Shown here piece by piece: positions 36,887 to 53,590 of a DNA stretch of 64,000 nt. The notes under the pieces were generated by a model. That model did not search any database. It was not told the DNA's origin and was given only the letters and a program-made list of their open reading frames with translations. The first letter of the stretch is position 1; each line of letters starts with the position of its first letter. Source of the DNA: a bacterium (GTDB lineage: Bacteria > Electryoneota > AABM5-125-24 > Hatepunaeales > Hatepunaeaceae); the NCBI GenBank assembly GCA_021734165.1, contig JAIPJL010000004.1:951-64950 (forward strand), written 5' to 3'. The position numbers were made by a program, and so were the translations under genes.

Positions 36887-36985
36887 AACTCTACACTCTT
36901 ATCACCAATGCATGGTTCAAAAAATCTGTCATTTATGACTTGATTCGGAATAATGCAATAATGCACGACTTGCCTTAAAATATAC

Positions 36986-36999
36986 TTGCATATTTGCAA
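36986..36999. promoter_or_regulatory. Candidate upstream activator site
   Basis: Palindrome TTGCA-TATT-TGCAA about 110-120 bp upstream of the sigma-54 site. Confidence 0.45.
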
Positions 37000-37106
37000 T
37001 ACAAGCTCTCTCCTGAGATTTCCTTACAACATCACCAATAATTAAATCTTCTCTCATCTCCTTAATTATCAATATATAACCCCTAAAATGACTTAATCTA
37101 AAAAGT

Positions 37107-37122
37107 TGGAACAGCCTTTGCT
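37107..37122 (+). promoter_or_regulatory. Sigma-54 (-24/-12) promoter of the ORP-like operon
   Basis: TGGAACAGCCTTTGCT: GG-N10-GC with TTGC, exact consensus spacing. Confidence 0.75.
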
Positions 37123-37233
37123 AAATAAAGCAAAATAGTCTTTAATGACTTTGCTTTTCATATTGTGTAAAAGTGATAAACTACAAGATGATAAAAGCTT
37201 TAATAACTCACAATAATAGACAGGAGAGTTGGA

Positions 37234-37596
37234 TTGAAAATTGCATTTACAACATCCGGTGATAACCTTGAAGCGCCAATAGACAGCCGTTTTGGCAGAG
37301 CGCCAAAATTCCTGATTTATGATCTGGATAGTGATACATTTGAGGTAATCGATAATCAGCAAAATCTAAATGCCATGCAAGGCGCAGGTATTCAGTCCGC
37401 TCAAACGGTTGCCAGATCGGGAGTATCATGTCTTGTAACAGGTCACTGCGGTCCTAAGGCGTTCCAGGTTCTTTCAGCAGCAAAGATTAAGATATATAAT
37501 TCCGAAGCAGCAACGATTTCGGAAGCTTTGGATGCTTATAAAAATGGCAGTCTTGAGAAAGCAAATTCGGCGGATGTCGGTAGTCACTGGATGTGA
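37234..37596 (+). CDS. Orange protein (ORP)-like NifX/NifB-family protein
   Basis: KIAFT...IDSRFGRA...GAGIQSAQ...TGHCGPKAFQVL; GGAG RBS, TTG start. Confidence 0.85.
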   Translation: MKIAFTTSGDNLEAPIDSRFGRAPKFLIYDLDSDTFEVIDNQQNLNAMQGAGIQSAQTVARSGVSCLVTGHCGPKAFQVLSAAKIKIYNSEAATISEALDAYKNGSLEKANSADVGSHWM

Positions 37597-37621
37597 TTTA
37601 AACCGTCATTTATAAGTCAAG

Positions 37622-38512
37622 ATGAGAACATCTCTCGATTGCATTCCCTGTTTCATTCGCCAAGCCCTGAACGCTGCAAGATTGGCGTCGGAGGACGGTT
37701 CCGTCCACGAGCGCATTCTCCAGGAAGCGCTGCGCTGGGCAATCGATATAAACATGGATCAACCAACACCCGTCATGGCTCAGCGCATTCACCGCCTACT
37801 TCGCAAAATTGTTGGCTCAGATGACCCTTACCGAGATGTGAAAGATCATCAGAACAGTATGGCTATGGCTCTCCTTCCTGAAATGAGGTCTAAAATTGAA
37901 GCTGCAACCGATCCGCTAAGTATGGCGTTGCAGTTGGCTATTGCAGGAAATGTAATAGACCTTGGAGTAAATGGTAACGTGACGGAAGGAGACGTGAGAG
38001 AATCCATCAATCAAGCACTGACACAACCGCTTGTGGGAGAGCAGATCGGATTTAGAAACGCTGTAACCAATGCTCAAAGCATTCTGTACCTCGCTGATAA
38101 TGCCGGGGAAATAGCTTTTGACCGCCTACTTGTCGAACAGCTAACACCTGCGCGTGTTACAGTAGCTGTTCGAGGTGCTCCTGTTATCAACGACGTCACT
38201 ATGATAGATGCCAGGACTGTTGGACTTAACGAAATAGTTGAAGTCATAGACAACGGATCGGATGCTCCAGGCACGTTACTTGAAGATTGCTGTCAGGAAT
38301 TTAAGCAGAGATTCAACGAAGTTGATCTGATTATAGCTAAAGGACAGGGCAATTATGAAACGCTCAGCGATGAGCCCTATAATATCTTCTTTCTGTTGAA
38401 AGCTAAGTGCTCAGTGATTGCAGCCCATGTCGGAGTTCCGATTGGAACACATGTTCTGGCGCATTCCAACAACAAAAACAAGAGCTTGGGAGTTGCATTA
38501 CGCCCAGCTTGA
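37622..38512 (+). CDS. DUF89/ARMT1-like metal-dependent phosphatase
   Basis: DCIPC, DPY, AGNVID, DNAGEIAFD, KGQGNYETL. Confidence 0.88.
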   Translation: MRTSLDCIPCFIRQALNAARLASEDGSVHERILQEALRWAIDINMDQPTPVMAQRIHRLLRKIVGSDDPYRDVKDHQNSMAMALLPEMRSKIEAATDPLSMALQLAIAGNVIDLGVNGNVTEGDVRESINQALTQPLVGEQIGFRNAVTNAQSILYLADNAGEIAFDRLLVEQLTPARVTVAVRGAPVINDVTMIDARTVGLNEIVEVIDNGSDAPGTLLEDCCQEFKQRFNEVDLIIAKGQGNYETLSDEPYNIFFLLKAKCSVIAAHVGVPIGTHVLAHSNNKNKSLGVALRPA

Positions 38513-38545
38513 AAATACAGAGTTCGAGTTTCTGCTTGGTTTCAA

Positions 38546-38562
38546 GTCCCGCATAGCGGGAC
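38546..38562. repeat. Mini-hairpin GTCCCGC-ata-GCGGGAC
   Basis: Perfect 7-bp stem with a CCCGC/GCGGG core like 188-213 and 2059-2085. Confidence 0.5.
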
Positions 38563-38683
38563 GTAACCTGGCAGTCATTAACCTCCATGTTATGTTTCGT
38601 TTGAAACCTGGAGGTAACTCCTTCTTTAATGAAATAACATTAGAGCAGAAAATTAACAATACATCAAAAAGAAAGGAATTGAA

Positions 38684-38986
38684 ATGCCGGAATTTGGATC
38701 CCCATTCTCAGGGATGGCAAGCGATAGGAAGCTAACCGACGAAGAGTTGATTCGCGCCATTCGCTTTATGATTGCAGCGGAGTATGAAGCGATTCAGTTG
38801 TATATGCAACTCGCCGAGTCAACAGACAATAAGCTCGCTATTGAGGTGCTCAAGGATATTGCAGACGAGGAGCGTGTTCATGCTGGTGAGTTTATCAGAT
38901 TGCTCCACGAACTTGATCCTAAAGAGCAGAAATTCTATTCTGAGGGCGCTGAGGAAGTTGAAGAGGAAATCGAGGAATTAAAGTAA
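38684..38986 (+). CDS. Short ferritin-like protein (rubrerythrin/encapsulated-ferritin type)
   Basis: Two-helix-hairpin di-iron motifs EYEAIQLY and DEERVHAGEF. Confidence 0.8.
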   Translation: MPEFGSPFSGMASDRKLTDEELIRAIRFMIAAEYEAIQLYMQLAESTDNKLAIEVLKDIADEERVHAGEFIRLLHELDPKEQKFYSEGAEEVEEEIEELK

Positions 38987-39038
38987 AACAGTTGAAATAC
39001 TGCTTAACAGCCAATACATTTCTAATAAGAAGTAATTA

Positions 39039-39887
39039 ATGAAACTTGCAGTTGCATCAGGAAAAGGCGGAACGGGTAAGACAACTATTGCTGTAAACCT
39101 TGCTAAGGTAGTCAAATCACGATTAAGGCTATTAGACTGCGATGTGGAAGCGCCGAATGATCATCTCTTTCTAAATGGTTCAATTCAGAATGAAGAGATC
39201 GTTAACGTTCTGATTCCTGTGGTGGATGAATCTCTCTGTGACGCTTGTGGTGAATGCAGTCAGTTTTGCGAATTCAACGCTATTGTATCGCTCAAGACAA
39301 CTCCGCTTATTTTTCCTGAACTCTGTCATAGCTGCGGCGGTTGTATGGAAGTCTGTCCGCATAGAGCCATTACTGAAGAACCACATCGGATTGGTGTTAT
39401 ACAGATTAGTGAGAAAGATAATATCACACTCACTCAAGGTCGTATTGATATTGGTGTGGCAATGGCGCCTCCGATGATTAGGGCAGTTAAGGCGCGAATG
39501 CAAAATGGAAATCATTGCATAATTGACGCACCACCAGGTACATCTTGTCCTGTAATTGCTGCAATAAGTGGTGTTGATTATGTAGCAATGGTCACCGAAC
39601 CGACGCCTTTCGGACTGCATGACTTGAAACTTGCCATTGACATGGCTCGCGAGATAAATATTCCCTTTGGTGTAATTATTAATAGAGTTGGAATTGGTGA
39701 TAATCGAGTTCATTCTCTTTGTGAACAGGAAGGTATTCCGATTCTAATGGAACTTCCGGATGACAGACGAATTGCTGAAGCTTATTCCAGAGGGGATTTG
39801 ATTGTTGAAGCGCTGCCGGAATATAGACGCTATTTTGAGGAGTTGTGGAAAAAAGTACTACCATACGAAAACAATAAGGTAAACTGA
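39039..39887 (+). CDS. MinD/CobQ-type P-loop ATPase with inserted 2x[4Fe-4S] ferredoxin (Orp3/Orp4-like)
   Basis: SGKGGTGKT, DCDVEAPN, CDACGECSQFC, CHSCGGCMEVCP, DAPPGTSCP, TEPT. Confidence 0.9.
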   Translation: MKLAVASGKGGTGKTTIAVNLAKVVKSRLRLLDCDVEAPNDHLFLNGSIQNEEIVNVLIPVVDESLCDACGECSQFCEFNAIVSLKTTPLIFPELCHSCGGCMEVCPHRAITEEPHRIGVIQISEKDNITLTQGRIDIGVAMAPPMIRAVKARMQNGNHCIIDAPPGTSCPVIAAISGVDYVAMVTEPTPFGLHDLKLAIDMAREINIPFGVIINRVGIGDNRVHSLCEQEGIPILMELPDDRRIAEAYSRGDLIVEALPEYRRYFEELWKKVLPYENNKVN

Positions 39888-39889
39888 TA

Positions 39890-40150
39890 ATGCCTACTTA
39901 CGAATATAAATGCGATAATTGCGGATTTGAATTTGAAAGACGACAATCAATTTCTGATCAGCCAATCTCGGAGTGTCCTGAATGTCAAGGGAAAGTTCAG
40001 CGATTGGTCAGCAGTGGAGTGGGATTCGTTTTCAAAGGTTCCGGACAGAATCGGATGAATCAAAACGGCAGTTGTTCATTAGAACAAACCGGAACGACTT
40101 GCTGCGGACAATCTTCGCCCTGCGGAACACCGTCATGCGGGATAGATTAA
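39890..40150 (+). CDS. FmdB-family zinc-ribbon protein
   Basis: MPTYEYKCDNCG...CPECQG...FKGSG. Confidence 0.88.
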   Translation: MPTYEYKCDNCGFEFERRQSISDQPISECPECQGKVQRLVSSGVGFVFKGSGQNRMNQNGSCSLEQTGTTCCGQSSPCGTPSCGID

Positions 40151-41097
40151 TGACACCAGATAAACTAAAACATATCTATGGGCCTGTGTTCTCGCGCCGT
40201 CTCGGTCATTCACTCGGAATTGATCTCGTGCCGTTTAAAACATGCACTTATGATTGCATATATTGCCAACTTGGACGCACAACCAACAAGACAATAGAGC
40301 TAAAGGAATACGTTAACGTTGATGATGTATTTAATGAGCTAAAACATTTATTGTCAACAAGATCCGATATTGATTATATAAGCCTGGCAGGGTCGGGTGA
40401 ACCGACTCTTAATAACCAAGTCGGGAAGTTGATCGACAAGATATTGGAAATAACAGATATACCTATTGCTGTTTTAACTAATGGATCATTGCTCTGGATG
40501 GATGAGGTTAAGCAAGCATTAATGAAAACCGATCTCGTTCTTCCTTCACTTGACGCCGGGGCGGAATCCTTGTTTAAATATGTCAATCGACCTCATAAAG
40601 GAATTTCATTTAAATCAATGGTTGATGGTATAGTAGATTTCTCGCATAGTTTTCCTGGTGAAGTAAGGCTTGAGGTTCTGCTGCTTGATGGAGTAACAGG
40701 GATTCAATCTGAAGTTAAAAAGATTGACGTTATTGCGAAACGTATTCAACCGTCACTAATCCAGTTGAACACAGCATCCCGTCCGCCTGTTGAGAAATTT
40801 GCATTGAGGATGTCGAATGATCAGTTACACGAGTTAAGTAGATACTTTACCGATAGCGTTGAAGTAATCTCCGATAATGAAGAAACGGTGTTGCCTGCAT
40901 CATCAGATAGAGTTGTAACACAGGATGAAATACTCGCATTGCTGCAAAGACGCCCTTGCACCTTACAAGGTATTTCCTCAGGCTTGAATTTCCACAAATT
41001 AGAGATACTTAAACTATTGGAGCAAATGGATCACCAAGGATTAGTCAAAGTTGTTCGAAAAGATGGATCAACATTTTACGAATTTTCTAATAAATGA
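40150..41097 (+). CDS. Radical SAM protein (SRRLG/TYW1-like subgroup)
   Basis: GPVFSRRLG.SLGIDL, CTYDCIYC, GSGEPTL, LTNGSL; ATG 40150 overlaps upstream TAA. Confidence 0.88.
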   Translation: MTPDKLKHIYGPVFSRRLGHSLGIDLVPFKTCTYDCIYCQLGRTTNKTIELKEYVNVDDVFNELKHLLSTRSDIDYISLAGSGEPTLNNQVGKLIDKILEITDIPIAVLTNGSLLWMDEVKQALMKTDLVLPSLDAGAESLFKYVNRPHKGISFKSMVDGIVDFSHSFPGEVRLEVLLLDGVTGIQSEVKKIDVIAKRIQPSLIQLNTASRPPVEKFALRMSNDQLHELSRYFTDSVEVISDNEETVLPASSDRVVTQDEILALLQRRPCTLQGISSGLNFHKLEILKLLEQMDHQGLVKVVRKDGSTFYEFSNK

Positions 41098-41969
41098 TAA
41101 AAGAACTGGTTGTAATAAGCGGTAAAGGGGGAACCGGAAAAACGAGTGTAACGGCTTCATTTGCGATGCTTGCAGATCATCCGGTAATTGCAGACTGCGA
41201 CGTTGACGCCGCGGATTTACATCTGATACTTTCGCCACATATAATTGAGCGTCACGAGTTCTATAGCGGTCATGAAGCGATCATTCGTCAGGATGATTGT
41301 AATGAATGCGGTGTATGTGAGGAATATTGCCGGTTTGATGCAATAAATATGAACGTCAATGAATCAGGAGAAACGGTATTCACTGTTGATCCTGTATCTT
41401 GTGAAGGCTGCGGTTTGTGTGTTTATCTATGTCCGGTTGATGCAATTGATTTTCCAACAAGGCGCTGTGGTGAATGGAGAATTTCTGAAACGCGTTGTGG
41501 TTCTATGGTTGACGCTCGTTTGGGAGTAGCCGCCGAAAACTCAGGCAAATTGGTTTCGACCGTTCGCAGGGAAGCGCGCCGAATTGCTGAAGATCAGAAT
41601 CGTTCCATGATTATTGTAGATGGACCACCTGGCATCGGTTGTCCGGTGATTGCATCGGTAACGGGAGCCTCACAGGTTTTGATAGTCTCTGAACCAACGG
41701 TGTCAGGTAAACATGATTTGGAGAGGGTTCTTGCGCTGACAGGGCACTTTAAAATACCGACAGCAGTTTGTATTAACAAATGGGATCTTAATCCGGCAAT
41801 GACAGAACTAATAGAAGAAACAGCTCGCAAATCCGAAGCTGTTATTGCCGGACGTATTAGGTATGATCCACTTGTGACTTCAGCTCAAATGCAAGGAAAA
41901 GCTGTGGTAGAGATTGATGCGCCTTCTGCAAATGACATTTACGGGATTTGGGAAAACCTTACGCTTTGA
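41094..41969 (+). CDS. Second MinD-type ATPase with 2x[4Fe-4S] ferredoxin (Orp3/Orp4-like)
   Basis: SGKGGTGKT, DCDVDAAD, CNECGVCEEYC, CEGCGLCVYLCP, ENSGKLV, DGPPGIGCP. Confidence 0.9.
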   Translation: MIKELVVISGKGGTGKTSVTASFAMLADHPVIADCDVDAADLHLILSPHIIERHEFYSGHEAIIRQDDCNECGVCEEYCRFDAINMNVNESGETVFTVDPVSCEGCGLCVYLCPVDAIDFPTRRCGEWRISETRCGSMVDARLGVAAENSGKLVSTVRREARRIAEDQNRSMIIVDGPPGIGCPVIASVTGASQVLIVSEPTVSGKHDLERVLALTGHFKIPTAVCINKWDLNPAMTELIEETARKSEAVIAGRIRYDPLVTSAQMQGKAVVEIDAPSANDIYGIWENLTL

Positions 41970-42048
41970 TTCCGAAAGCTGTTTCTCAAGACTGGAAATA
42001 TAAAAAACAAATAAATTAAGATTCCCATAAATACAAAGAGGAAACCAA

Positions 42049-42387
42049 ATGAAAATTGCAATACCTTTGGCAAACGGCAAGCTGGCAATGCATTTTGGAC
42101 ATTGTGAGAGTTTTGCTATGATTGAAGTGGATGACGTTGGAAAAACGATAATTAATCGCGAGGATCTTCTGGCGCCACCACATCAACCTGGATTGCTGCC
42201 ACCTTGGTTAGCAGAACGGGGCGCTACGATGATCATATCAGGAGGTATGGGACAACGCGCTGTATCAATGTTTCATCAGCAAGGCATTAGAGTAGAGGTT
42301 GGCGCTCCTGCTGAGACGCCGGAAGTAATAGTATCAAATTATCTTGCCGGTGATCTTATGTTAAGTCAGAATGTTTGTGATCACTAA
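42049..42387 (+). CDS. Stand-alone NifX-family protein resembling the C-terminal domain of MrpORP
   Basis: KIAIP...HFGHC...PPHQPG...GGMG...NVCDH. Confidence 0.85.
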   Translation: MKIAIPLANGKLAMHFGHCESFAMIEVDDVGKTIINREDLLAPPHQPGLLPPWLAERGATMIISGGMGQRAVSMFHQQGIRVEVGAPAETPEVIVSNYLAGDLMLSQNVCDH

Positions 42388-42414
42388 AACAGTTAAAAAT
42401 AAAGAGTAAATAAA

Positions 42415-42645
42415 ATGATACAAGGTGGAAGAACTGGCGGCGGGGGTATAGGGGGAGGTAGAGGCACAGGTGGTGGTGGTGGACAAGGTGGTGGAGGTGG
42501 AGGACGCGGAGGCGGTAGAGGATTTGGCCCCGGAGGTGAATGCGTCTGCAGCGCTTGCGGTCATGTTGCACCTCATCAACCCGGTCAACCCTGCTTTCAG
42601 ATGAAATGTCCGAAGTGTGGGGCAGTAATGATCCGAAAAGATTAG
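42415..42645 (+). CDS. Small Gly-rich protein with C-terminal Cys cluster
   Basis: GG repeats then [12 protein letters not shown]...PC...CPKCG. Confidence 0.75.
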
Positions 42646-42720
42646 AAAGTTTAGAAATGATAGTTGATTAAATTTGTGATCGATTTACTAAATTAAAACA
42701 ATTAACAACGGATTTCTGAA

Positions 42721-43167
42721 ATGAAGGATAGAGTTAAAATCGGCATAATTATCTGCGACCGTTACCATACCTGCGCTGGTGGTAAATGCTTCAAATCGCT
42801 GAAAAACAGGGAAGGCGCTTTCAGTATTTACCAGGACAAAGAAGCTGAATTGGTGGGATATACAACCTGTGGAGGCTGCCCCGGTGGAAATATTGAGCAT
42901 GCAACGGAGGAGATGAAGAAAAACGGCGCTGAGGTAATTCACCTTGCTACTGGATTTGTAGTTGGTTATCCTCCCTGTCCGTATTTGAAGTATTTCAAGG
43001 ATTTTATTCCTGCTAAGTTTGGTATGGAAGTTGTTATCGGCACTCATCCCATTCCTGAAAAGTATTTCATCACACATAACATACTGAAAACATGGTCTGA
43101 TCCTGAATGGAAAGAGATGCTGCAACCGACCATTGCAAATGAGGAAATCCGTAAAGCTTATAATTAA
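42721..43167 (+). CDS. CGGC-domain protein
   Basis: IIIC...CAGGKC...TTCGGCPG...IHLA...CP...GTH. Confidence 0.88.
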   Translation: MKDRVKIGIIICDRYHTCAGGKCFKSLKNREGAFSIYQDKEAELVGYTTCGGCPGGNIEHATEEMKKNGAEVIHLATGFVVGYPPCPYLKYFKDFIPAKFGMEVVIGTHPIPEKYFITHNILKTWSDPEWKEMLQPTIANEEIRKAYN

Positions 43168-43183
43168 TTGAGTTAGCGGTTAT

Positions 43184-43633
43184 ATGAACCAAAAAAGAAT
43201 TTTACCGCCAACCTATTTTTTGATTAGTTTAAATTTGATGGTTGGCTTAAACTTTCTGCTTCCGATTAAGAAGTTAGCGCCATTTCCCTGGAATTTCATT
43301 GGAATACTGCCATTGGCATTTGGGATACTTCTGAATCTGATTGCAGATAAAGCATTTACAAAGAACAAGACTACGGTAAAGCCATTTGAAGAATCTACCG
43401 CATTAATCACAGATGGCGCTTTCAGAATCAGTCGAAATCCGATGTATCTCGGTATGACTTTTATATTACTTGGACTTGCATTGCTCTTGGGGAGGCTTTC
43501 ACCTCTGCTAATTATACCGTTTTATGTTCTCCTGATGGATTTAATTTTTATCAAAGCCGAAGAGAAAATGCTTGAAAAGTCATTTAGGGATAATTGGATG
43601 AATTATAAACGGAAGGTCAGGCGGTGGATTTAG
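43184..43633 (+). CDS. ICMT/PEMT-family membrane methyltransferase
   Basis: TM helices, LITDGAFRISRNPMYLG, EEKMLEKSF...Y...VRRWI. Confidence 0.88.
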   Translation: MNQKRILPPTYFLISLNLMVGLNFLLPIKKLAPFPWNFIGILPLAFGILLNLIADKAFTKNKTTVKPFEESTALITDGAFRISRNPMYLGMTFILLGLALLLGRLSPLLIIPFYVLLMDLIFIKAEEKMLEKSFRDNWMNYKRKVRRWI

Positions 43634-43691
43634 CCAGACCTAAAATTAAGCTTAGGTTTACTGTAATCTTTAAACTTGGAGAACAAACATA

Positions 43692-44861
43692 ATGGTAAAT
43701 AAACCCCTAATTTCCAACAGAGTCGCACAAATTCAAAAATCAGCCATCCACGAAATGACGAGGCTGTCAAAGGAAGTTGAAGATGTAGCGTTTTTATCCT
43801 GGGCAAAACCTACTTCTGACACACCGGAGCATATCAAGGAGGCTGCCATTGCTGCGATTAAAGCTGGAAAAGTTGGCGGATACTCTGAAAATGCCGGATT
43901 ATTGCCGCTGCGCGAGGAGATCGTAAAGAAGCTGAAACGCGATAACAATATAGACGCCAATACTGCGCAGATTCTCCTGACCGTCGGTGCGATTGAAGGC
44001 TTATCAGCAGCCATAATGGCAATAGTCGATCCCGGTGATGAAGTAATCCTGCCATCACCAACTTACTCGACACACATCCGTCAGGTGGTTATAGCTTCCG
44101 GAAAACCTGTCCTGATTCCAACCATCGAAGAAGAAGGCTTTATTCTCGATCTTGAGGCTATTAAGAAAGCCATCACACCAAGAACCAAAGCGATCGTTTA
44201 CTGCTCACCGAGCAACCCAACCGGAACGGTCTTTTCGGAACAGCAGCTTCGGGCATTAGCAGAGATTGCTCTTGAACATAACCTGATGGTTATTACTGAC
44301 GAGGCTTATGAGTATTTCGTATTCGACGATCATAAACACTTCAGTATTGCTTCTATTCCTGAAATCCGAAGGAACGTGATAAGCTGTTATACTTTCACAA
44401 AAACTTATGCTATGACAGGCTGGCGACTCGGTTATCTTCATGCGGATGAAGCAATGATACCGCATATAACCAAAGCACACATTCCATTTGCAATCTGCGC
44501 TCCGGTTGTTTCTCAGTACGCTGCTTTGGGAGCATTACAGGGATCGCAGTCCTGCGTTTCGGATTTTAGAGAACACTACCTGGCGGCAAGAAACCTGATG
44601 TGTGAACGTCTTGATCGGCTAAGTTCTGTCTTCGATTACCAGAAACCCGGCGGCTCTTACTTGATGTTCCCGCGCATTCTGCTTGAAGAAGGTAAGGATT
44701 CAACAGCGTTTTGCATCAGGCTGTTAAAAGAGGGCAAGGTCTCAACAACACCCGGCATTGCATTTGGTCCAACCGGACAAAGTCATCTACGCTTGTCCTT
44801 TTGCGTTCCACTTGACGCAATCAACAAGGCATTTGACAGAATGGAAGTTTACTTCAGATAG
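43692..44861 (+). CDS. PLP-dependent aminotransferase class I/II
   Basis: PSNPTG, DEAY, TFTKTYAMTGWRLGY, LRLSF. Confidence 0.92.
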   Translation: MVNKPLISNRVAQIQKSAIHEMTRLSKEVEDVAFLSWAKPTSDTPEHIKEAAIAAIKAGKVGGYSENAGLLPLREEIVKKLKRDNNIDANTAQILLTVGAIEGLSAAIMAIVDPGDEVILPSPTYSTHIRQVVIASGKPVLIPTIEEEGFILDLEAIKKAITPRTKAIVYCSPSNPTGTVFSEQQLRALAEIALEHNLMVITDEAYEYFVFDDHKHFSIASIPEIRRNVISCYTFTKTYAMTGWRLGYLHADEAMIPHITKAHIPFAICAPVVSQYAALGALQGSQSCVSDFREHYLAARNLMCERLDRLSSVFDYQKPGGSYLMFPRILLEEGKDSTAFCIRLLKEGKVSTTPGIAFGPTGQSHLRLSFCVPLDAINKAFDRMEVYFR

Positions 44862-44869
44862 ATTTTTTC

Positions 44870-46840: not shown

Positions 46841-47629
46841 TTATTTATCATCCGACTTTTTTTCACTAATGGAACTATTCTCGCTTTTGTCCTTCTCCGA
46901 ATGATCCATGCGACGTTTTATTATCCAATTCAAACCTAACATACTCCCCATAACGGTCATACCGATTATTGGCGTCTTATGTATCAGAGGTTCAGTCAGG
47001 TCATTAATAGGAACTGTATCACGTTTTGGAAAACCTAACTCGCTAAGGTCAACATCTGAAATGTAAATAACCGATGTTCCGCCATACTCTTCCTCACCCC
47101 ACACACGATTAATATATTTATCAGGTTTTGATTTAATACGCTGATGCGCTTCATGCAGCAACGTATTTCGTTCACCAAATAACAATGCTCCTGTTGGACA
47201 CACCTCGACACAAGCTGGTAATTGACCATCCTTTAGTCGCTCGTGACACATTGTGCATTTCTTAATATGAGGAGTCAGATCATCCCATTCATAACGTGGT
47301 ATGTGGAACGGACAGGCAAGCATACAATACCTGCAGCCAATACATTGATTAGGATCATAAACGACAGGTCCTTCAGGTGTTTTAGTAATGCCTCCGCACA
47401 AGCAGGCAGCGACACAGCTCGGTTCAACACAGTGCATACATGCCTTTTTAGCAAAACTCTTTTCATCAACCTTAAGAACCGTTGATAAGCGATTACCGCT
47501 TAAACCATCATTTGTGGAACTTCTATCTATTTCAGCAGTAACAGGATCAAGATTGTTTGCTTCAACGCAAGCGGCTGCGCATTGTTCGCATCCTGTGCAA
47601 AGCGTAACGTCAATAAGTATGGAAAACAT
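46841..47629 (-). CDS. HmcB/HybA-like multi-[4Fe-4S] subunit with C-terminal membrane anchor
   Basis: CTGCEQCAAAC, CMHCVEPSCVAAC, CIGCRYCMLACP, KCTMC...PACVEVCP, YGGTSV; no twin-arginine leader. Confidence 0.88.
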   Translation of the reverse strand: MFSILIDVTLCTGCEQCAAACVEANNLDPVTAEIDRSSTNDGLSGNRLSTVLKVDEKSFAKKACMHCVEPSCVAACLCGGITKTPEGPVVYDPNQCIGCRYCMLACPFHIPRYEWDDLTPHIKKCTMCHERLKDGQLPACVEVCPTGALLFGERNTLLHEAHQRIKSKPDKYINRVWGEEEYGGTSVIYISDVDLSELGFPKRDTVPINDLTEPLIHKTPIIGMTVMGSMLGLNWIIKRRMDHSEKDKSENSSISEKKSDDK

Positions 47630-48327
47630 TATACACGCGCCTCCTTGCCAAATAAAGCATCTGCAACTTTGTCTCCAGCTCCGGGTCTCAGCTGCCAGTG
47701 TAATCCTGAAACACGATCAAAGAAGAATAATACAATATGAGAAAGCTTAGTAAATGGAATCAGAACGAATAACGCTTCTGCGCTGAGAAAGTGAGTAAGC
47801 ATCATCGTATCCCATGCAAAAGGATTAAATTTAGGATGAGAAGCTAAAAATCCTGATGCAAACGGTAGAAACACCATAATAAGTATCAGGTAATCCATGG
47901 GACCACTCATAGCCCTTTGACGACCGACAAACACCCTACAGCAGAATAAAACAATCAGACAGGCGATTGTGAATAGCGTTAAAACATCAGCAACACCTTT
48001 GCCGATTGAAGGCAGGTTTAATCCAAGGAATCCTTCCCATAAAACAACATGATCCACAAGGAATACGGGCACAAGAATCAACCCGATATGGGATAAAAAA
48101 GATGCTGAGGAAAAGAATGCTGTACCAGGGATGAAGTGCTTAACCGGAACTGCCCAGGTTAACGTATCAAGGATAATCTTCCTCCATGGCGCATTCCTGA
48201 GCCGCCTTCCTTTTCTAATTCCGAGGTAATATATTTGTAGAACTACGTGTCGAAAAAGACCCAGAATCATGAATAAAAAGGTAAATGCGAATAAAGGACC
48301 TTTTGCGAAGTCTAACCATTGTTCCAT
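47629..48327 (-). CDS. HmcE/TmcC (NarI-like) b-type cytochrome membrane subunit
   Basis: Five predicted TM helices with His residues (SHIG, DHV, THFL, SHI), IPFTKLSH. Confidence 0.8.
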   Translation of the reverse strand: MEQWLDFAKGPLFAFTFLFMILGLFRHVVLQIYYLGIRKGRRLRNAPWRKIILDTLTWAVPVKHFIPGTAFFSSASFLSHIGLILVPVFLVDHVVLWEGFLGLNLPSIGKGVADVLTLFTIACLIVLFCCRVFVGRQRAMSGPMDYLILIMVFLPFASGFLASHPKFNPFAWDTMMLTHFLSAEALFVLIPFTKLSHIVLFFFDRVSGLHWQLRPGAGDKVADALFGKEARV

Positions 48328-48371
48328 TTATTTCTCTTTGTTACGTGTTAATTTGTAATTGTGTGTCAAAG

Positions 48372-49811
48372 CTACATTTCAAACATTGCAGCTTCTTCTT
48401 TACGCTCTTCTGCGCTTTTTGCTCCGGGTATCTCGATAGCCTTGAGGATAAGATCGTGCAGTCCCATTACTTTACAGGGCAGTTTGTAGAACTCAACTAA
48501 TTCTTTTAATTGTTTCTTACAATTTGCGCAGGGCGAAATAACGATTTCAGCGCCTGTTTCACGAATCTGATCAGCTTTCTGTTTCCCGCCAATGTTCATT
48601 CTAAAATTATAAATCTCATCAACTGAAACCAATCCACCGCCACCACCACAGCAGTAGTTATTAACTCCATGAGGCTCCATCTCAACGAAATCTTTGATAA
48701 ATGACCGAATTATTTTACGAGGTTGTTCTACAATCCAGCCTGAACGCGATATGTTACAGGGATCGTGATATGTCACTCGTTCGGTGATTATATTAGGATT
48801 AAGTTTGATCTTACCTTTTTCGATGCAATCGAGAGTGTATTCCATGAAGTTAAAAACGGGATAACTTTCTTTACCGGCAAATACCGGAACAAAATCATGC
48901 GCTGAGCGGGATGCATGACCACACTCACCGATTAATATTTTCTTCCCACGCAGGCGAGTTACCTCATGGACAAGTTGCTTGATTATATTTTCAAGATGCC
49001 AATCACTATAAAAAAGACCGTAATTTATACCATCGAAATCTTGTGTTCCAATCGTCCATTTATCCCAGTCACCGGCGGCGTAAAGAACAACAGCATTGCC
49101 CATTAAAGTATCGGGCTCAAGCAGATAGTCGCTTACAGCGCAGAAGAAGACATATTCACGATCATACTTATCAACCGGCGCTTCCATTCTTACTCCAAAA
49201 GATTCCTCAATCTCATCTGAAAGAAATTCCAATGTGTCCATCAATGCAACTTTCGGGATTTTTGAAGTGTTGTGGGTTTCACCCTCAAGCTGTTCTCTTG
49301 TTGCTACCTGCAAGGCTTTGGGAACAATACCGATCAGACTCAAGATGTACCTCCCCAAACGTGTCATCAGTCCGTGATCGACGCCCATAGGACATTCCGT
49401 CGTGCAACGTCGGCATGCAGTACAGCGATAGAAAAGGTCGAGCATTTCATCGATGATTTCCTCTGTCAAGTCAGTCCCATTAGAAAACCGAGAGTTTGCC
49501 CAGCCGCCAAAAGTGAAGTACCGTTTATATGTTTCTAAAAGCAGGTTAGTTCTGTAACAAGGTATGTCCTTAGGATCACCCGTTGCCAGATAAACAGGGC
49601 AAGTCACTGCACATCGGTTGCACTTGGCATTGGATGTACAATATGAGTCAAGAAGCGGTTTATAATCCGTGAAATGCAGTACCGCAGCAAATGCTTCAAG
49701 GAATCGCTCCACCCGGTTTTCCGTAACCGGATTTTCTATATAATATGGATAAGTCTTTTTACCGTTATCTCTTTGAACCAACGGTTTGACAGCTTCGATA
49801 ACTTCATCCAT
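48372..49811 (-). CDS. HmcF/TmcB (HdrD-like) Fe-S oxidoreductase with CCG domains
   Basis: CNRCAVTCP, CTACRRCTTECP, GECGHA, YHDPC, CCGGGGG, CANC; GGAGA RBS puts the start at 49811, and the ORF-track ATG at 49922 lies inside the promoter. Confidence 0.85.
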   Translation of the reverse strand: MDEVIEAVKPLVQRDNGKKTYPYYIENPVTENRVERFLEAFAAVLHFTDYKPLLDSYCTSNAKCNRCAVTCPVYLATGDPKDIPCYRTNLLLETYKRYFTFGGWANSRFSNGTDLTEEIIDEMLDLFYRCTACRRCTTECPMGVDHGLMTRLGRYILSLIGIVPKALQVATREQLEGETHNTSKIPKVALMDTLEFLSDEIEESFGVRMEAPVDKYDREYVFFCAVSDYLLEPDTLMGNAVVLYAAGDWDKWTIGTQDFDGINYGLFYSDWHLENIIKQLVHEVTRLRGKKILIGECGHASRSAHDFVPVFAGKESYPVFNFMEYTLDCIEKGKIKLNPNIITERVTYHDPCNISRSGWIVEQPRKIIRSFIKDFVEMEPHGVNNYCCGGGGGLVSVDEIYNFRMNIGGKQKADQIRETGAEIVISPCANCKKQLKELVEFYKLPCKVMGLHDLILKAIEIPGAKSAEERKEEAAMFEM

Positions 49812-49910
49812 CGTTAATTCTCCAATCAATTTTTGTGTATTGACGCTCGGTTGTTTATCGCCAGAGCTGCAATAAAATGTTCTTTGAAACCATAATTCGC
49901 TATGAACGTA

Positions 49911-49926
49911 TGCAAAGGACATACCA
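49911..49926 (-). promoter_or_regulatory. Sigma-54 (-24/-12) promoter of the Hmc-like operon
   Basis: Minus strand TGGTATGTCCTTTGCA: GG-N10-GC, exact spacing. Confidence 0.8.
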
Positions 49927-50102
49927 TTTTAACGATGTGTTAATGGTTCGCTGGATATTACCTAAATTTTCACAAACAAGCTTTCATTTTAACTTCATGT
50001 TATAAAAGCACGTACAGAAAATTTATAGATAAATGGATTTCTACCACTTACTGAATTATATAATTTTTCCAATATGGGAGTTGAACTAAGCATCGATTTA
50101 TA

Positions 50103-50139
50103 TGTCGCAAGTGTTGCAACATATTGTTGCAGTGAAACA
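50103..50139. promoter_or_regulatory. Candidate upstream activator sites
   Basis: Clustered TGT(T/C)GCA/TGCAACA half-sites including the perfect palindrome TGCAACA-TAT-TGTTGCA (50115-50131), about 180-210 bp from the promoter. Confidence 0.6.
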
Positions 50140-50407
50140 AATATTAAGACATCCATTAAGACGTTAAGTGGATATTCTGTAGCATTAATTCAAAGATTTC
50201 AAACAATTCATTTAGTATTCACTTGAGAATCAGATATATCCATTTCATTATTTATAATCTATTCCCACGATTATTTACCAAACTATTAATAAATCACTTC
50301 TGATTATTAAAAATACACACATTTTTGCAGACCGGATGGTGATTATACGGCACGTTAGTTGCTTGAGGTCGTATGTAGAACACGGAAAACTCTCTGGAAA
50401 AGATAAT

Positions 50408-51394
50408 TTGATTGCGATACCACTGCTAAAGGAACGAGTTGCGCCGCGCTGCACATTCGCAGAAAGCATTCTCGTTGCATCACTTAAATATGGTCGAGTC
50501 ACTGTTCAAGACAACGTTCCATTTGAAGGAAATACAAGTATTGATTTGGTGCGTACTTTAAATGAACAAGGCATTAGGACTCTGATCTGTGGTGGTATCA
50601 GCGAATCAGCCAGGGAAGCGCTTGTTTCATCCAACGTAGCCATCATCGAAAACGTTACCGGAACTGCTGAAGAAATACTTGAAGCATTAAAGTTTGGTAA
50701 AGTTAAATCCGGATTTGGATTTAATGCAATAGAGGATTCAGTTGTTGATGCTTCGTCAGCTAATGATACACCATCTGGAAACGGACTGGAAGCTCAGAAA
50801 AGAGAATTATCTGAAGAGATAGATTGCTTGAATTGTGTAGATCGAAAATGTTTAAGGGGTGAGAACTGTGTGGGAGAATTGGCGTCTAATCTGACTAAGA
50901 CGTCGAATGAAGTACAAGAAATGCTTGAATCGGCAATGGATGTGGCTTTCGAGGAAGAGCGGAAGTTATGTCGTATGGCTGAGTTGGTTTATTATTGTCT
51001 TGGAATGAAATACGAACGTATCGGCGTTGCATTCTGTATAGAACTACTGCATCCGTCAACAATTCTCGTCGGGGTGTTAAGGAGGTTTTTTAAAGTTTTT
51101 CCGGTATGTTGCAAAATTGGTGGAGTCGAAATTGAAGATGATAATAGTAAAAATCTGCATGGATATACAGTAAAACCAACCTGTCATATTGCCTGCAATC
51201 CCATTATGCAGGCTGAAATGCTGAATAGATTTGAGACTGATATAAATATTATAGTTGGTTTATGTGTAGGTGCTGACAGTATTTTCACAAGCGCAAGCAA
51301 TGCGCCTGTAACAACGATCTTTGTTAAGGACAAGTCTCTTGCTAATAATCCGATAGGCGCTGTTTACTCGGACTACTACCTTAATGAAATCTAA
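50408..51394 (+). CDS. NifX-family domain fused to a DUF1847-like Cys-rich domain
   Basis: IAIPL...RVAPR...LICGGI; C-terminal CCKIGG, CNPIMQA, GLCVGADS, VKDK...NP; TTG 50408 preferred over 50336. Confidence 0.75.
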   Translation: MIAIPLLKERVAPRCTFAESILVASLKYGRVTVQDNVPFEGNTSIDLVRTLNEQGIRTLICGGISESAREALVSSNVAIIENVTGTAEEILEALKFGKVKSGFGFNAIEDSVVDASSANDTPSGNGLEAQKRELSEEIDCLNCVDRKCLRGENCVGELASNLTKTSNEVQEMLESAMDVAFEEERKLCRMAELVYYCLGMKYERIGVAFCIELLHPSTILVGVLRRFFKVFPVCCKIGGVEIEDDNSKNLHGYTVKPTCHIACNPIMQAEMLNRFETDINIIVGLCVGADSIFTSASNAPVTTIFVKDKSLANNPIGAVYSDYYLNEI

Positions 51395-51444
51395 TTACGG
51401 TTTAACAAAAAAGAATAACAGTTTAATTTTTAAGGAGAAAGAAA

Positions 51445-51981
51445 ATGGCAATACCAAATTTAAACGCTGTCGGTTTCTGCGCTCATTATTCCCAACAAGG
51501 TGACTGGGCGTTCGATTATGCTTTAGGTTTATCTCGTGAGCATAGAATTCAACTGGATGTATTTCACTTCCTGGAAAATCCTTTTGATCCTAATGACAAT
51601 TCAGCGAAAAACCTTTCAAAAGCAGATCGACAGAGACTTGCTATCGAACGAGAACGTGAATTAAGGATGTACTATGACAGCCGCGCAGGTGACTATCTTG
51701 AAGTAGGATTCAGACTCTGCGAGGACAATGAATGGACAGAATTGCATCGTTGTTTGCTAATAAGAGAGTTCCAAATTCTCGTTCTTGGCTACATAGAAAT
51801 CGATGCGTACTTCGCAGGCAAACCGATAGAGGAATTTGCGAATAGTTTTGTTAGTCCGGTAATTTTGGTTGGTCCTGAAAACCCGGATAAATATTTGCTT
51901 AATAGTCCGGCAGCTCTCATTGCTGATAAACTATGCTTACCGGAGGGAAGCTGGCAGAAAATCGAACTTGTCTCTGCATGA
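51445..51981 (+). CDS. Universal-stress-protein-like protein (divergent)
   Basis: beta-alpha start (FCAHYSQQGDWAFDYAL...LDVFH), ILVLG, SPVILV; AGGAG RBS. Confidence 0.55.
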   Translation: MAIPNLNAVGFCAHYSQQGDWAFDYALGLSREHRIQLDVFHFLENPFDPNDNSAKNLSKADRQRLAIERERELRMYYDSRAGDYLEVGFRLCEDNEWTELHRCLLIREFQILVLGYIEIDAYFAGKPIEEFANSFVSPVILVGPENPDKYLLNSPAALIADKLCLPEGSWQKIELVSA

Positions 51982-52170
51982 TAGTAATGCAGGAATGCAA
52001 TACACAAAGGATTGACATTGACATAGAGAATATTTAAAATCCATTTAATCGTTAAAATGAGATATATATCAAGTGATAAGCATTGTTATATATGTCGATT
52101 AATCCTTATATTTAGTGGTATAATTGTTGCACAAGTCATTTTTGGTTATTCAAAGAAACAAAGGAATAAT

Positions 52171-53472
52171 ATGAACGATCTGAGTGAATTAATCTTCGAT
52201 AGTATCAGTGATGGTGTATTTACAGTAAATGATAAATGCATCATCACTTCTTTCAACAAAGCAGCCGAAGATATCACTGGATTCAAAGCTAAAGAAGCGC
52301 TTGGAAAACATTGTTTCGATGTTTTCCGTACAGAAGTCTGTCATAAAAGATGTGCACTTAAAGATACTCTTAAGAATCATGATCCTGTTGATAACGCTAG
52401 GGTGACTATTATAACCAGCGAGGGATGTGAGTTGCCAATTAGCGTGACCACAACTTTATTAAGGGATAAAGCGGAACGTATAATTGGCGCTGTTGAGTTT
52501 TTTAGGGACATTTCTGAGATCGAGCATCTTCATAAGCGTCTGGATGAACGGCGCATTTTAAGTGATATAGTCAGTGTAAACACTGAGATGCAGAAGCTGG
52601 TTCAACTGTTGCCCGATGTAGCTGAAGCTGAGTGCAATGTATTAATAGAGGGTCCCAGTGGTTCCGGAAAGGAATTAGTAGCGCAGGTTATTCATAATCT
52701 CAGTCCTCGCAAGTATGGACCTTACATAAAAATAAACTGTGCTGCCCTGCCGGCGACACTTCTCGAATCGGAGCTATTTGGTTATTCGAAGGGAGCATTT
52801 ACAGACGCTAAACGCGATAAACCTGGGCAGTTTTGCCTCGCCAACGGTGGAACCTTGCTGCTTGATGAAATCAGTGAAATGGATATATCGCTCCAGGTTA
52901 AGTTGCTAAGGGTACTGAATAATGGTGAGTATCAACCGCTTGGATCAACTAATACTATGCGGACTGACGCCCGGATTATTGCCGCAACAAATGCAAATCT
53001 TCAGAAGTGTATTGAAGAAGGACGCTTCAGAGAAGATCTTTATTATAGAATCAATGTTGTTAGTCTTCAGATTCCACCCCTTAACGAGCGGCCTGAAGAT
53101 ATCCCGCTTCTCGTTAATTACTTCATGCAAAAATTCCGTAAAAAAACAAGAAAATCTATCAATAAAGTTGCTCCGGAAACTCTTGCAGTATTAAGAAAAT
53201 TCCTTTTTCCAGGTAATGTCAGGGAATTAGAGAATGCTATCGAACATGCATTTGTCATGTGTCATGGCAGTGAGATCAGATCGGAGCACCTTCCGTTGAA
53301 TATCGTAAATAATGGTTATGCCACTAATGGTGTAACATCAGTTAAAACACATGAGAAGCAGGTTATTACTGAAGCCTTACAACGCAACCATGGCAATCGC
53401 AATCGCACTGCTGAAGAACTCGGTTTGCACAGATCAACTCTTTGGAGAAAAATCAGGATGTATAGATTATAG
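52171..53472 (+). CDS. PAS-domain sigma-54 enhancer-binding protein (OrpR-like)
   Basis: PAS with three Cys (GKHC...EVCHKRC), GPSGSGKE, ESELFGY.KGAFTDA, LDEI, FPGNVREL, Fis-type HTH; AGGA RBS before ATG 52171. Confidence 0.9.
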   Translation: MNDLSELIFDSISDGVFTVNDKCIITSFNKAAEDITGFKAKEALGKHCFDVFRTEVCHKRCALKDTLKNHDPVDNARVTIITSEGCELPISVTTTLLRDKAERIIGAVEFFRDISEIEHLHKRLDERRILSDIVSVNTEMQKLVQLLPDVAEAECNVLIEGPSGSGKELVAQVIHNLSPRKYGPYIKINCAALPATLLESELFGYSKGAFTDAKRDKPGQFCLANGGTLLLDEISEMDISLQVKLLRVLNNGEYQPLGSTNTMRTDARIIAATNANLQKCIEEGRFREDLYYRINVVSLQIPPLNERPEDIPLLVNYFMQKFRKKTRKSINKVAPETLAVLRKFLFPGNVRELENAIEHAFVMCHGSEIRSEHLPLNIVNNGYATNGVTSVKTHEKQVITEALQRNHGNRNRTAEELGLHRSTLWRKIRMYRL

Positions 53473-53590
53473 AAACTTCGAGGTGAAAAAGATCTCGTCC
53501 TCGAAGCTGCCAAAGCATTTTAACCTGCCATTTCTGGCATAAAACAGCTAAATTACTGCAATAGTGATTTAGCTGTTATTATTTGTAACT

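Follow-up and report, generated by a model that had tools for sequence, protein, structure and literature searches.

A metal-sulfur operon of the ORP ("orange protein") type and an operon for a membrane redox complex resembling Hmc lie side by side in a 64-kb stretch of DNA from an uncultured Electryoneota bacterium (contig JAIPJL010000004.1, assembly GCA_021734165.1; "the window" refers to this whole stretch), and the locus raises the question of whether the two are switched, and work, as one system. The ORP system is defined by a physical complex of its proteins, with a Mo/Cu-sulfide cluster bound to ORP. The ORP complex comprises two ferredoxin-bearing ATPases (Orp3 and Orp4), Orp5, ORP itself (Orp8) and MrpORP (Orp9); it is under sigma-54/OrpR control and its physiological role is unresolved (PMC6345978, PMC8359166). 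OrpR of Desulfovibrio vulgaris responds to redox potential by way of a [4Fe-4S] cluster in the PAS domain; this cluster depends on C52, C61 and C65, with D/E54 close by. OrpR is active at very low potential only and its regulon consists of the two orp operons (PMC8359166). A first-pass annotation of the window had proposed a single island, in which three operons are run by one OrpR-type activator and the Hmc-like complex is the client whose Fe-S centers the ORP proteins assemble, insert or repair. The reading that we came to favor, and regard as probable with some reserve, is that of two separately switched sigma-54 units within one low-redox, sulfidic response, the Hmc-like complex being an extra transmembrane electron wire in an organism with dsr genes.

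The genes beyond the ORP operon formed a fixed seven-gene module, made up of the four-gene Hmc-like operon on the minus strand and a plus-strand trio that diverges from it and encodes a NifX-DUF1847 fusion, a protein of the universal stress protein (USP) fold and a sigma-54 activator; the ORP run, on the plus strand, converges on the Hmc-like operon (Table 1). The fusion of an NrfD-like subunit with a cytochrome encoded in this operon had more than 1,280 relatives at E ≤ 1e-10. An alignment of this protein served to scan species-representative genomes; of 160 relatives the best 80 were taken, and tblastn with each of the 19 window proteins was run against these 80 loci (from Gemmatimonadota, Ignavibacteriota, Zixibacteria, Acidobacteriota, Krumholzibacteriota, LCP-89 and Electryoneota). 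A locus counted as fully flanked if its sequence extended for at least 9.5 kb on both sides of the Hmc-like operon (n = 28). The module was intact in all 28 of them, the trio was found in 44 of the 45 loci that extended this far on the activator side, three gene-called loci displayed the same seven-gene layout, and no fewer than 65 genomes from at least six phyla had the module. The NifX-DUF1847 and USP-fold proteins were as conserved as the Hmc-like complex itself.

Exact GG-N10-GC sites of the sigma-54 type headed the ORP and the Hmc-like operons, as the first-pass annotation had reported, and a third one, at 50348, stood ahead of the NifX-DUF1847 gene; with corrected starts, the three sites lay 45-110 nt upstream of the first genes. 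Both sites of the hmcF/NifX-DUF1847 intergenic region kept their positions in ~55 orthologous loci, and TGGTAY-N5-YTTGC was present at the position equivalent to the Hmc promoter in most of 63 orthologous intergenic regions. In the window, TGGCACN5TTGCW was found with at most one mismatch at three sites only, two of them being island promoters. A third near-consensus sigma-54 site, TGGAACAGAAGTTGCT (56474-56489), lay inside the ORF 56025-57104 and is probably a chance match.

The enhancers separated the two units. Between the divergent promoters of the module, ~190 and ~230 nt from them, lay an array in which GTTGCAAC is flanked by GTYGCA/TGCRAC half-sites, and this arrangement was retained in 57 of the 63 orthologous regions. 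It was the sole cluster of at least four half-sites in the host genome, and the genome-wide scan found no such cluster upstream of the ORP operon. The signals of the ORP operon matched instead those beside a second activator gene, situated on contig C11 of the same genome (C11:1-5079, locus L009). This gene is followed by a perfect palindrome with 17-bp arms, ATTGCATAAGTGCACGA-N15-TCGTGCACTTATGCAAT, and, ~131 nt past it, by the promoter TTGGAACAGCATTTGC, which heads an operon for an OYE-type reductase, a radical SAM (rSAM)/SPASM protein and a NifX. The best non-self match to the palindrome in the 3.4-Mb genome was at 36952-37000 of the window (25/34 positions; runner-up 22), ~131 nt upstream of TTGGAACAGCCTTTGC at 37107, with the same spacing as at C11. 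The promoter form TTGGAACAGCNTTTGC occurred at two genomic sites only, that of the ORP operon and that downstream of the C11 activator. We infer that the ORP operon would be controlled by the C11 activator, and just the two operons of the module by the local activator, an arrangement that does not agree with one OrpR island. The OYE gene of C11 encodes a flavoprotein like OYE/2,4-dienoyl-CoA reductase, a homologue of which was present in the run beside the Hmc-like module of Ca. Electryonea.

Behind the class O activators (defined below) of other loci stood TTGCA-N3-5-TGCAA elements and a sigma-54 site. Nothing consistent was found in the way of sigma-54 sites directly upstream of the ORP homologues of other loci, where the promoters lay further upstream, between the second activator and an additional NifX gene. 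No C11-type enhancer or promoter was found in the Ca. Electryonea locus, nor was the OrpR palindrome of D. vulgaris, GGGCGYRTTTTGCGCCC, found near the island at up to three mismatches.

The activator of the window has PAS, sigma-54 AAA+ and Fis-type HTH domains, as does OrpR (DVU2106), and its motif CFDVFRTEVCHKRC reads C-x-D-x6-C-x3-C, the C-x-[D/E]-x6-C-x3-C of OrpR (C52/D54/C61/C65) at the same place of the PAS domain. Activators with this Cys motif fell into two classes in the 80 loci: class H, always behind the USP-fold gene, with the motif CFD[IV]FRTE.CH..C, and class O, beside ORP clusters, with CCDVFRASICE..C. Members of both classes stood in tandem at several loci (L022, L071, L085, L088). 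A maximum-likelihood tree was built of 80 activators, with the orp-linked activator of a Syntrophales genome as the orp-linked reference; it placed the window activator in class H, and a 100/100 branch parted this class from class O, the Syntrophales activator and the host activators of contigs C11 and C31. The three Cys of OrpR were kept by just two host activators, the local one and that of C11, and the D/E residue by the local one alone, since in the C11 activator (C-x8-C-x3-C) it is replaced by K. The first-pass assignment to the OrpR type was supported as to the Cys motif and not supported as to the lineage: judged from its sequence, the window activator is OrpR-like in the mechanism-defining residues, yet a paralogue of the orp-linked lineage. 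Like OrpR it adjoins divergent sigma-54 operons with a central palindromic enhancer. It differs in belonging to a sister class with a constant place, behind the NifX-DUF1847 and USP-fold genes and opposite an Hmc-like operon, in having the GTTGCAAC array as its enhancer, and in its likely targets, which are not orp genes.

ORP genes were found near the module in a part of the 80 loci, ORP in 20, each of the two MinD-ferredoxin ATPases in 14 (both in 13), the radical SAM protein in 13, the second NifX (NifX2) in 9, the CGGC protein in 8 and the Gly/Cys peptide in 4, whereas DUF89, EncFtn, PEMT, aminotransferase and FmdB genes were almost never there. Ten of the 28 fully flanked loci, in several phyla, had the ATPase pair no more than 10 kb away from the Hmc-like operon, either downstream of hmcC, as in the window, or beyond the activator, and in either orientation. 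The neighbors of the module varied; Ca. Electryonea has OYE, DUF364 and DsrE genes in place of the ATPases, and unrelated genes were found at L014 and L015. Among 61 genomes of the host phylum, 15 had the module and 24 the ATPase pair (14 both, 1 Hmc only, 10 ATPases only, 36 neither; Fisher p = 1e-6), and in six of them (G000, G015, G021, G029, G045, G048) the two lay within 12 kb of each other. The ORP-Hmc adjacency is, then, not unique to this genome; it is recurrent, far above chance and non-obligatory. The first ORP MinD-ferredoxin ATPase had no orthologue in 18 of 50 module-bearing genomes of other phyla, and 10 of the 24 ATPase-bearing genomes of the host phylum were without the module. 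This indicated that each unit can exist alone and, from the former count, that ORP is not an obligatory maturase of the complex. Since the pairing recurs in several phyla, it is probably functional, though the units look separately regulated.

Presence of the module was tied to dsrA. This gene was detected in 36 of the 61 host-phylum genomes, including all 15 with the module, in all 50 module genomes of other phyla (48 above the cut-off and two as split genes), and in 20 of the 24 ATPase-bearing genomes of the host phylum, so that the module was found in dsrA-bearing genomes only (65/65). Within the dsrA-positive host-phylum genomes alone, co-occurrence of module and ATPases was still strong (14 both, 1 module only, 6 ATPases only, 15 neither). 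Because dsrA was present in all module genomes tested, we take the module to be a likely accessory of dissimilatory sulfur metabolism, which agrees with its Hmc/DsrMKJOP-like subunits. A more specific version, which we hold to be unlikely but tenable, would make it a standard accessory, so far unrecognised, to dissimilatory sulfite reduction in the non-classical dsr phyla, with NifX-DUF1847 as the dedicated cytoplasmic partner of the HdrD-like subunit (as a metal-sulfur carrier or a redox substrate) and ORP acting on the same species.

Several points weigh against the separation of the two units and the inferences built on it. The 25/34 match of the ORP enhancer has a genome-wide chance of ~0.05 by rough extrapolation, and the assignment to the C11 activator leans therefore partly on promoter and spacing. 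The half-sites of both enhancer types are related (TTGCA/TGCAA), so that the local activator may also act on the ORP operon. D. vulgaris OrpR itself is not in the tree, its place being taken by the Syntrophales activator. All comparison genomes are metagenome-assembled genomes (MAGs) and the loci are phylogenetically non-independent; the absence of the ATPase from 18 of 50 genomes may partly reflect MAG incompleteness.

The ORP run was found to consist of 12 plus-strand genes, from 37234 to 44861 (ORF listing, Pfam and NCBIfam scans). All genes named in the first-pass annotation were present where it had put them (Pfam/NCBIfam); its gene order was slightly off, as FmdB and the radical SAM protein lie between the two ATPases. 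As a reference we used a Syntrophales orp locus, obtained through its NCBI-named MrpORP, in which a Cys-PAS activator is followed by NifX, DUF5320, NifX, two MinD-ferredoxin ATPases, DUF89, radical SAM and MrpORP. Six window proteins matched this locus at 39-54% identity, five of them its separate genes (the ORP-like NifX 46% to one of its NifX proteins, DUF89 39%, ATPase 1 52%, residues 57-366 of the radical SAM protein 47%, ATPase 2 54%) and NifX2 the C-terminal domain of its MrpORP (53% to MrpORP C-termini). The best match of the ORP-like NifX in the PDB was D. gigas ORP (2WFB, E 1.8e-20), and homologues of the Gly/Cys peptide stood between ORP and the ATPases in L027, L034, L062 and L090. 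By these comparisons the run is a genuine ORP-type operon with a core orthologous to canonical orp clusters. No Mrp domain was found in the 64-kb window, as the first-pass annotation had stated, and NifX2 is there the only, stand-alone, Di-Nase-like domain; a full MrpORP was nonetheless encoded on host contig C113 (524 bits vs. a cut-off of 450). Desulfovibrio records were absent from the best 120 MrpORP homologues.

With the orp genes of D. vulgaris Hildenborough the operon shares an ORP-like NifX, two MinD-ferredoxin ATPases, an MrpORP-like NifX domain, a sigma-54 promoter and an upstream palindromic enhancer, and the host shares an OrpR-family Cys-PAS activator and dsr genes. Unlike the two divergent three-gene operons of D. 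vulgaris, it is a single operon of 12 genes, lacks the palindrome GGGCGYRTTTTGCGCCC, has MrpORP and the likely cognate activator on other contigs, and adds DUF89, radical SAM, EncFtn-like, FmdB, CGGC, PEMT and aminotransferase genes; it also adjoins an Hmc-like module, for which we found no such report in Desulfovibrio. The EncFtn/EncB-like gene is a lineage-specific addition, seen near the Hmc-like operon in one of the 80 other loci, and no shell gene of a family-1 encapsulin was found in the 86%-complete host genome. In an Acidobacteria MAG (L054), an EncFtn homologue directly follows the Hmc-like operon. The FmdB gene was not found near the module in the other loci of the survey, and the PEMT/ICMT gene was kept beside it in Ca. 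Electryonea. The stops of the aminotransferase gene and of the convergent hmcC were 8 nt apart (44861-44870), and no terminator was detected between them in a hairpin scan; the two transcripts may overlap antisense.

The Hmc-like complex has the components of Hmc, Tmc and DsrMKJOP of sulfate reducers (HdrD/DsrK-like CCG subunit, NarI-like cytochrome b, four-cluster Fe-S subunit, NrfD-like subunit and multiheme cytochrome c) and resembles them in its strict co-occurrence with dsrA. All its subunits scored below the NCBIfam equivalog cut-offs (Table 1). In contrast with Hmc (HmcABCDEF), it is encoded by four genes in the order F-E-B-C, and neither a separate 16-heme HmcA nor the small HmcD was present in the operon, the sole cytochrome being a six-heme domain in fusion with the NrfD subunit. 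The six CxxCH motifs of this fusion were invariant in 17 homologues. The HmcF-like ORF reaches 49922, with a homology-supported start at M38 (49811) and orthologues of 473-479 amino acids. The Fe-S subunit has no N-terminal Tat signal, since its alignment begins at position 38 of the HmcB profile; it retains a C-terminal hydrophobic helix. A further difference from Hmc, Tmc and DsrMKJOP is the control by sigma-54 together with a NifX-DUF1847/USP/activator operon.

For the NifX-DUF1847 fusion, an alignment with 44 homologues and the DNA placed the start at the TTG of 50408, not at 50336. Nine Cys were invariant among homologues. The N-terminal domain has the NifX/ORP fold (TM-score 0.84 to PH0822; ORP 2WFB was also matched) and leads into a linker whose C-x2-C-x4-C-x5-C is invariant; the Rossmann-like C-terminal domain has five further invariant Cys and a faint likeness to Dph2. 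No paper on DUF1847 turned up in the literature search. Every top Foldseek match of the model of the next protein was a universal stress protein. These two proteins are the best candidates for partners of the HdrD-like subunit. The ORF of the activator begins at 52057, with the probable start at M39 (52171). A strong sigma-70-like promoter (11/12 matches) at 52012-52040, just 5' of the activator gene, suggests that this gene has its own constitutive promoter, as reported for orpR.

Table 1. Features of the ORP operon and of the seven-gene module in the window (positions of the whole stretch; values separated by a slash are bits/cut-off).
Feature	Position	Strand	Evidence or remark
Putative ORP operon enhancer (UAS), AATGCAATAATGCACGA-N15-ACTTGCATATTTGCAAT	36952-37000	.	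match to C11 palindrome
Sigma-54 -24/-12 promoter of ORP operon, TGGAACAGCCTTTGCT	37107-37122	+	GG-N10-GC scan
ORP/Orp8-like NifX-fold protein	37234-37596	+	PF02579, 86 bits
DUF89/ARMT1-like protein	37622-38512	+	PF01937, 235 bits
EncFtn/EncB-family ferritin-like protein	38684-38986	+	NF058679, 102 bits vs. cut-off 90
MinD-type ATPase 1 with inserted 2x[4Fe-4S] ferredoxin domain (Orp3/Orp4-like)	39039-39887	+	CbiA, ParA and Fer4 domains
FmdB-family zinc ribbon protein, Cys-rich tail	39890-40150	+	TIGR02605, 74.7 bits
Radical SAM protein	~40150-41097	+	PF04055; start M57 of ORF beginning at 39982; M52 at 40135 also possible
MinD-type ATPase 2 with ferredoxin insert (Orp3/Orp4-like)	41094-41969	+	Pfam domains
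NifX2, stand-alone homologue of MrpORP C-terminal Di-Nase domain	42049-42387	+	NF041136 positions 265-364, 126 bits
Gly-rich peptide, C-terminal Cys zinc-ribbon-like motif	42415-42645	+	sequence
CGGC-domain protein	42721-43167	+	PF08821, 107 bits
PEMT/ICMT-family membrane methyltransferase	43184-43633	+	PF04191, 61 bits
Class I/II PLP aminotransferase, last gene of the run	43692-44861	+	PF00155, 219 bits
HmcC/NrfD-like membrane subunit fused to C-terminal hexaheme c3-type cytochrome	44870-46840	-	NrfD and Cytochrom_CIII; HmcC 229/550
HmcB/HybA-like four-cluster Fe-S subunit	46841-47629	-	HmcB 243/420
HmcE/TmcC/NarI-like membrane cytochrome b subunit	47629-48327	-	NF045723 and NF045716, ~115 bits (HmcE 115/275)
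HdrD/DsrK/HmcF-like cytoplasmic CCG Fe-S subunit	48372-49811	-	DsrK 291/400; HmcF 228/750
Sigma-54 promoter of Hmc-like operon, TGGTATGTCCTTTGCA	49926-49911	-	GG-N10-GC scan; ~100 nt 5' of homology-supported HmcF start
Central enhancer array, GTCGCA-N3-GTTGCAAC-N5-GTTGCA	50104-50131	.	between divergent promoters; conserved in orthologous regions
Sigma-54 promoter of NifX-DUF1847/USP/activator operon, CGGCACGTTAGTTGCT	50348-50363	+	GG-N10-GC scan
NifX-DUF1847 fusion	50408-51394	+	PF02579 and PF08901
USP-fold protein, 178 aa, three conserved Cys	51445-51981	+	no Pfam match; AlphaFold pLDDT 88
PAS-AAA+-HTH sigma-54 activator, Hmc-linked (H) class	52171-53472	+	Pfam domains, tree
Terminator-like hairpin closing the activator operon	53543-53577	+	16-pair stem

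The genome of the host (a MAG of 3.4 Mb) has as its nearest named relatives Ca. Electryonea clarkiae and Ca. Hatepunaea meridiana, of the phylum Ca. Electryoneota (AABM5-125-24), a lineage listed among those with the full dsr pathway, including dsrD, in a survey of dsrAB genomes (10.1101/2023.06.27.546762). It encodes rpoN (sigma-54), dsrAB (contig C114), and dsrC with the canonical dsrMKJOP (contig C80), all subunits scoring above their cut-offs. The host is outside the classical sulfate reducers, but not outside sulfate/sulfite reducers; the first-pass description of the system as lying outside sulfate reducers was in this respect mistaken, given these genes and the link of the module to dsrA. 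The possibility that the window complex is the DsrMKJOP of this genome was rejected, because the canonical set sits on C80 (the HdrD-like subunit encoded in the window reaches 291/400 for DsrK). A second, more distant HmcFEBC::cytochrome paralogue was found at C154:16969-22086 (locus L010; 38% identity in the NrfD-cytochrome subunit), among unrelated neighbors and with no activator, NifX-DUF1847 or ORP genes alongside. Genome G037 of this phylum has a C154-type paralogue, on contig C135, ~6 kb from a MinD-ferredoxin ATPase pair. The MrpORP gene (C113:870-6185, locus L008) is at a contig end and adjoins restriction-modification genes (type III res-like helicase, N6/N4 methylase). A join of C113, with MrpORP at its end, to C11, with NifX at its start, into one orp locus was dropped because the order in Ca. 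Hatepunaea (MrpORP-OYE-rSAM/SPASM-NifX) does not fit.

On the reading that we favor, the first unit would be the 12-gene ORP operon, fired from its sigma-54 promoter at 37107 and a putative enhancer served in trans by the OrpR-family activator of C11. Its core consists of the ORP-like NifX, the two ATPases, DUF89, the radical SAM protein, the NifX resembling the C-terminus of MrpORP and the Gly/Cys peptide, the EncFtn-like, FmdB, CGGC, PEMT and aminotransferase genes being local additions. The second unit would be the seven-gene module, with its two divergent sigma-54 operons fired from the central GTTGCAAC array by its own activator, which, by analogy with OrpR, would carry a redox-labile [4Fe-4S] cluster in the PAS domain and be active only at very low redox potential. 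The Hmc-like complex would be the third transmembrane wire of the Hmc/DsrMKJOP type in this genome, linking periplasmic hemes c, through its Fe-S and heme b subunits, with a cytoplasmic HdrD-like thiol/disulfide site. Which activator binds where, the sensing of redox potential and the direction of electron flow are all deduced here, as is the participation of both units in a single physiological response to a strongly reducing, sulfidic state, as opposed to a role of ORP as the complex's own maturase.

The dependence might also run the other way, with the Hmc-like complex and NifX-DUF1847 feeding low-potential electrons from the periplasm or the quinone pool to the ORP machinery, which would build or handle metal-sulfide species under sulfidic conditions. 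The ferredoxin domains of the ORP ATPases and the need of the radical SAM enzyme for a reductant would suit such a supply, as would the cytoplasmic HdrD-like subunit of the module with its NifX-fold, Cys-rich partner, the recurrent adjacency, and the confinement to, or enrichment in, dsrA genomes of both units (module 15/15, ATPases 20/24). We nevertheless judge it improbable, as ORP clusters function with no module in Desulfovibrio (literature), in the Syntrophales locus and in 10 of 24 host-phylum genomes, and the two units are separately regulated.

The single island with ORP as maturase of the Hmc-like client has a slim chance in our estimation. It accounts for the sigma-54 promoters at all three units, for the local activator being the only one of the host with the three Cys of OrpR plus D/E, for the recurrent adjacency and the ATPases in 14 of the 15 host-phylum module genomes, and for the inclusion of a NifX-fold protein in the module itself; MrpORP is, besides, an Fe-S carrier (PMC6345978). 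The regulatory half conflicts with an enhancer motif of the local activator that is single in the genome and absent 5' of the ORP operon, and with the match of the ORP promoter and enhancer to the site of the C11 activator. The maturase half conflicts with the 18 of 50 module genomes that miss an orthologue of ATPase 1 and with ORP clusters that lack the module (10/24 in the host phylum and the Syntrophales cluster); apart from aconitase as a test protein, the ORP proteins are the only recipients shown for Fe-S transfer by the Desulfovibrio MrpORP (PMC6345978). An equally slim chance is left to a meaningless adjacency, either a relic of tandem duplication of the activator gene or an accident within a variable island, for which the tandem activator paralogues (L022, L071, L085, L088) and the variable neighbors of the module (OYE/DUF364/DsrE in Ca. 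Electryonea, unrelated genes in L014 and L015) would speak, but a single-copy cluster is expected within 10 kb by chance in less than 1% of genomes against 10 of 28 observed, the linkage survives rearrangement (ORP cluster on either side and in either orientation), and co-occurrence is strong within dsrA-positive genomes alone (14, 1, 6, 15).

ORP, OrpR and Hmc-type complexes were already known. Within a limited literature search, no paper was found that describes an Hmc-linked OrpR paralogue with its own enhancer, a seven-gene module with a strict tie to dsrA, or a recurrent ORP adjacency, and the above survey of dsrAB genomes made no mention of Hmc, Tmc or NrfD.

The physiological role of ORP has been open since its first description, and OrpR was so far known to act on nothing but the orp operons of one Desulfovibrio strain. 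The OrpR-type Fe-S PAS activators now divide into two or more paralogous classes that have enhancers of their own, and one of them would govern an Hmc-like respiratory complex seen only in dsrAB-bearing genomes of poorly known phyla. ORP clusters recur beside the module, and together these points make HmcF and NifX-DUF1847 concrete candidate partners of ORP. If the module were in truth a standard accessory of dissimilatory sulfite reduction, the ORP system would gain a physiological context, that of metal-sulfide or Fe-S handling in a strongly reducing, sulfidic cell. The module itself offers a marker for the energy metabolism of newly recognised sulfite/sulfate-reducing lineages.

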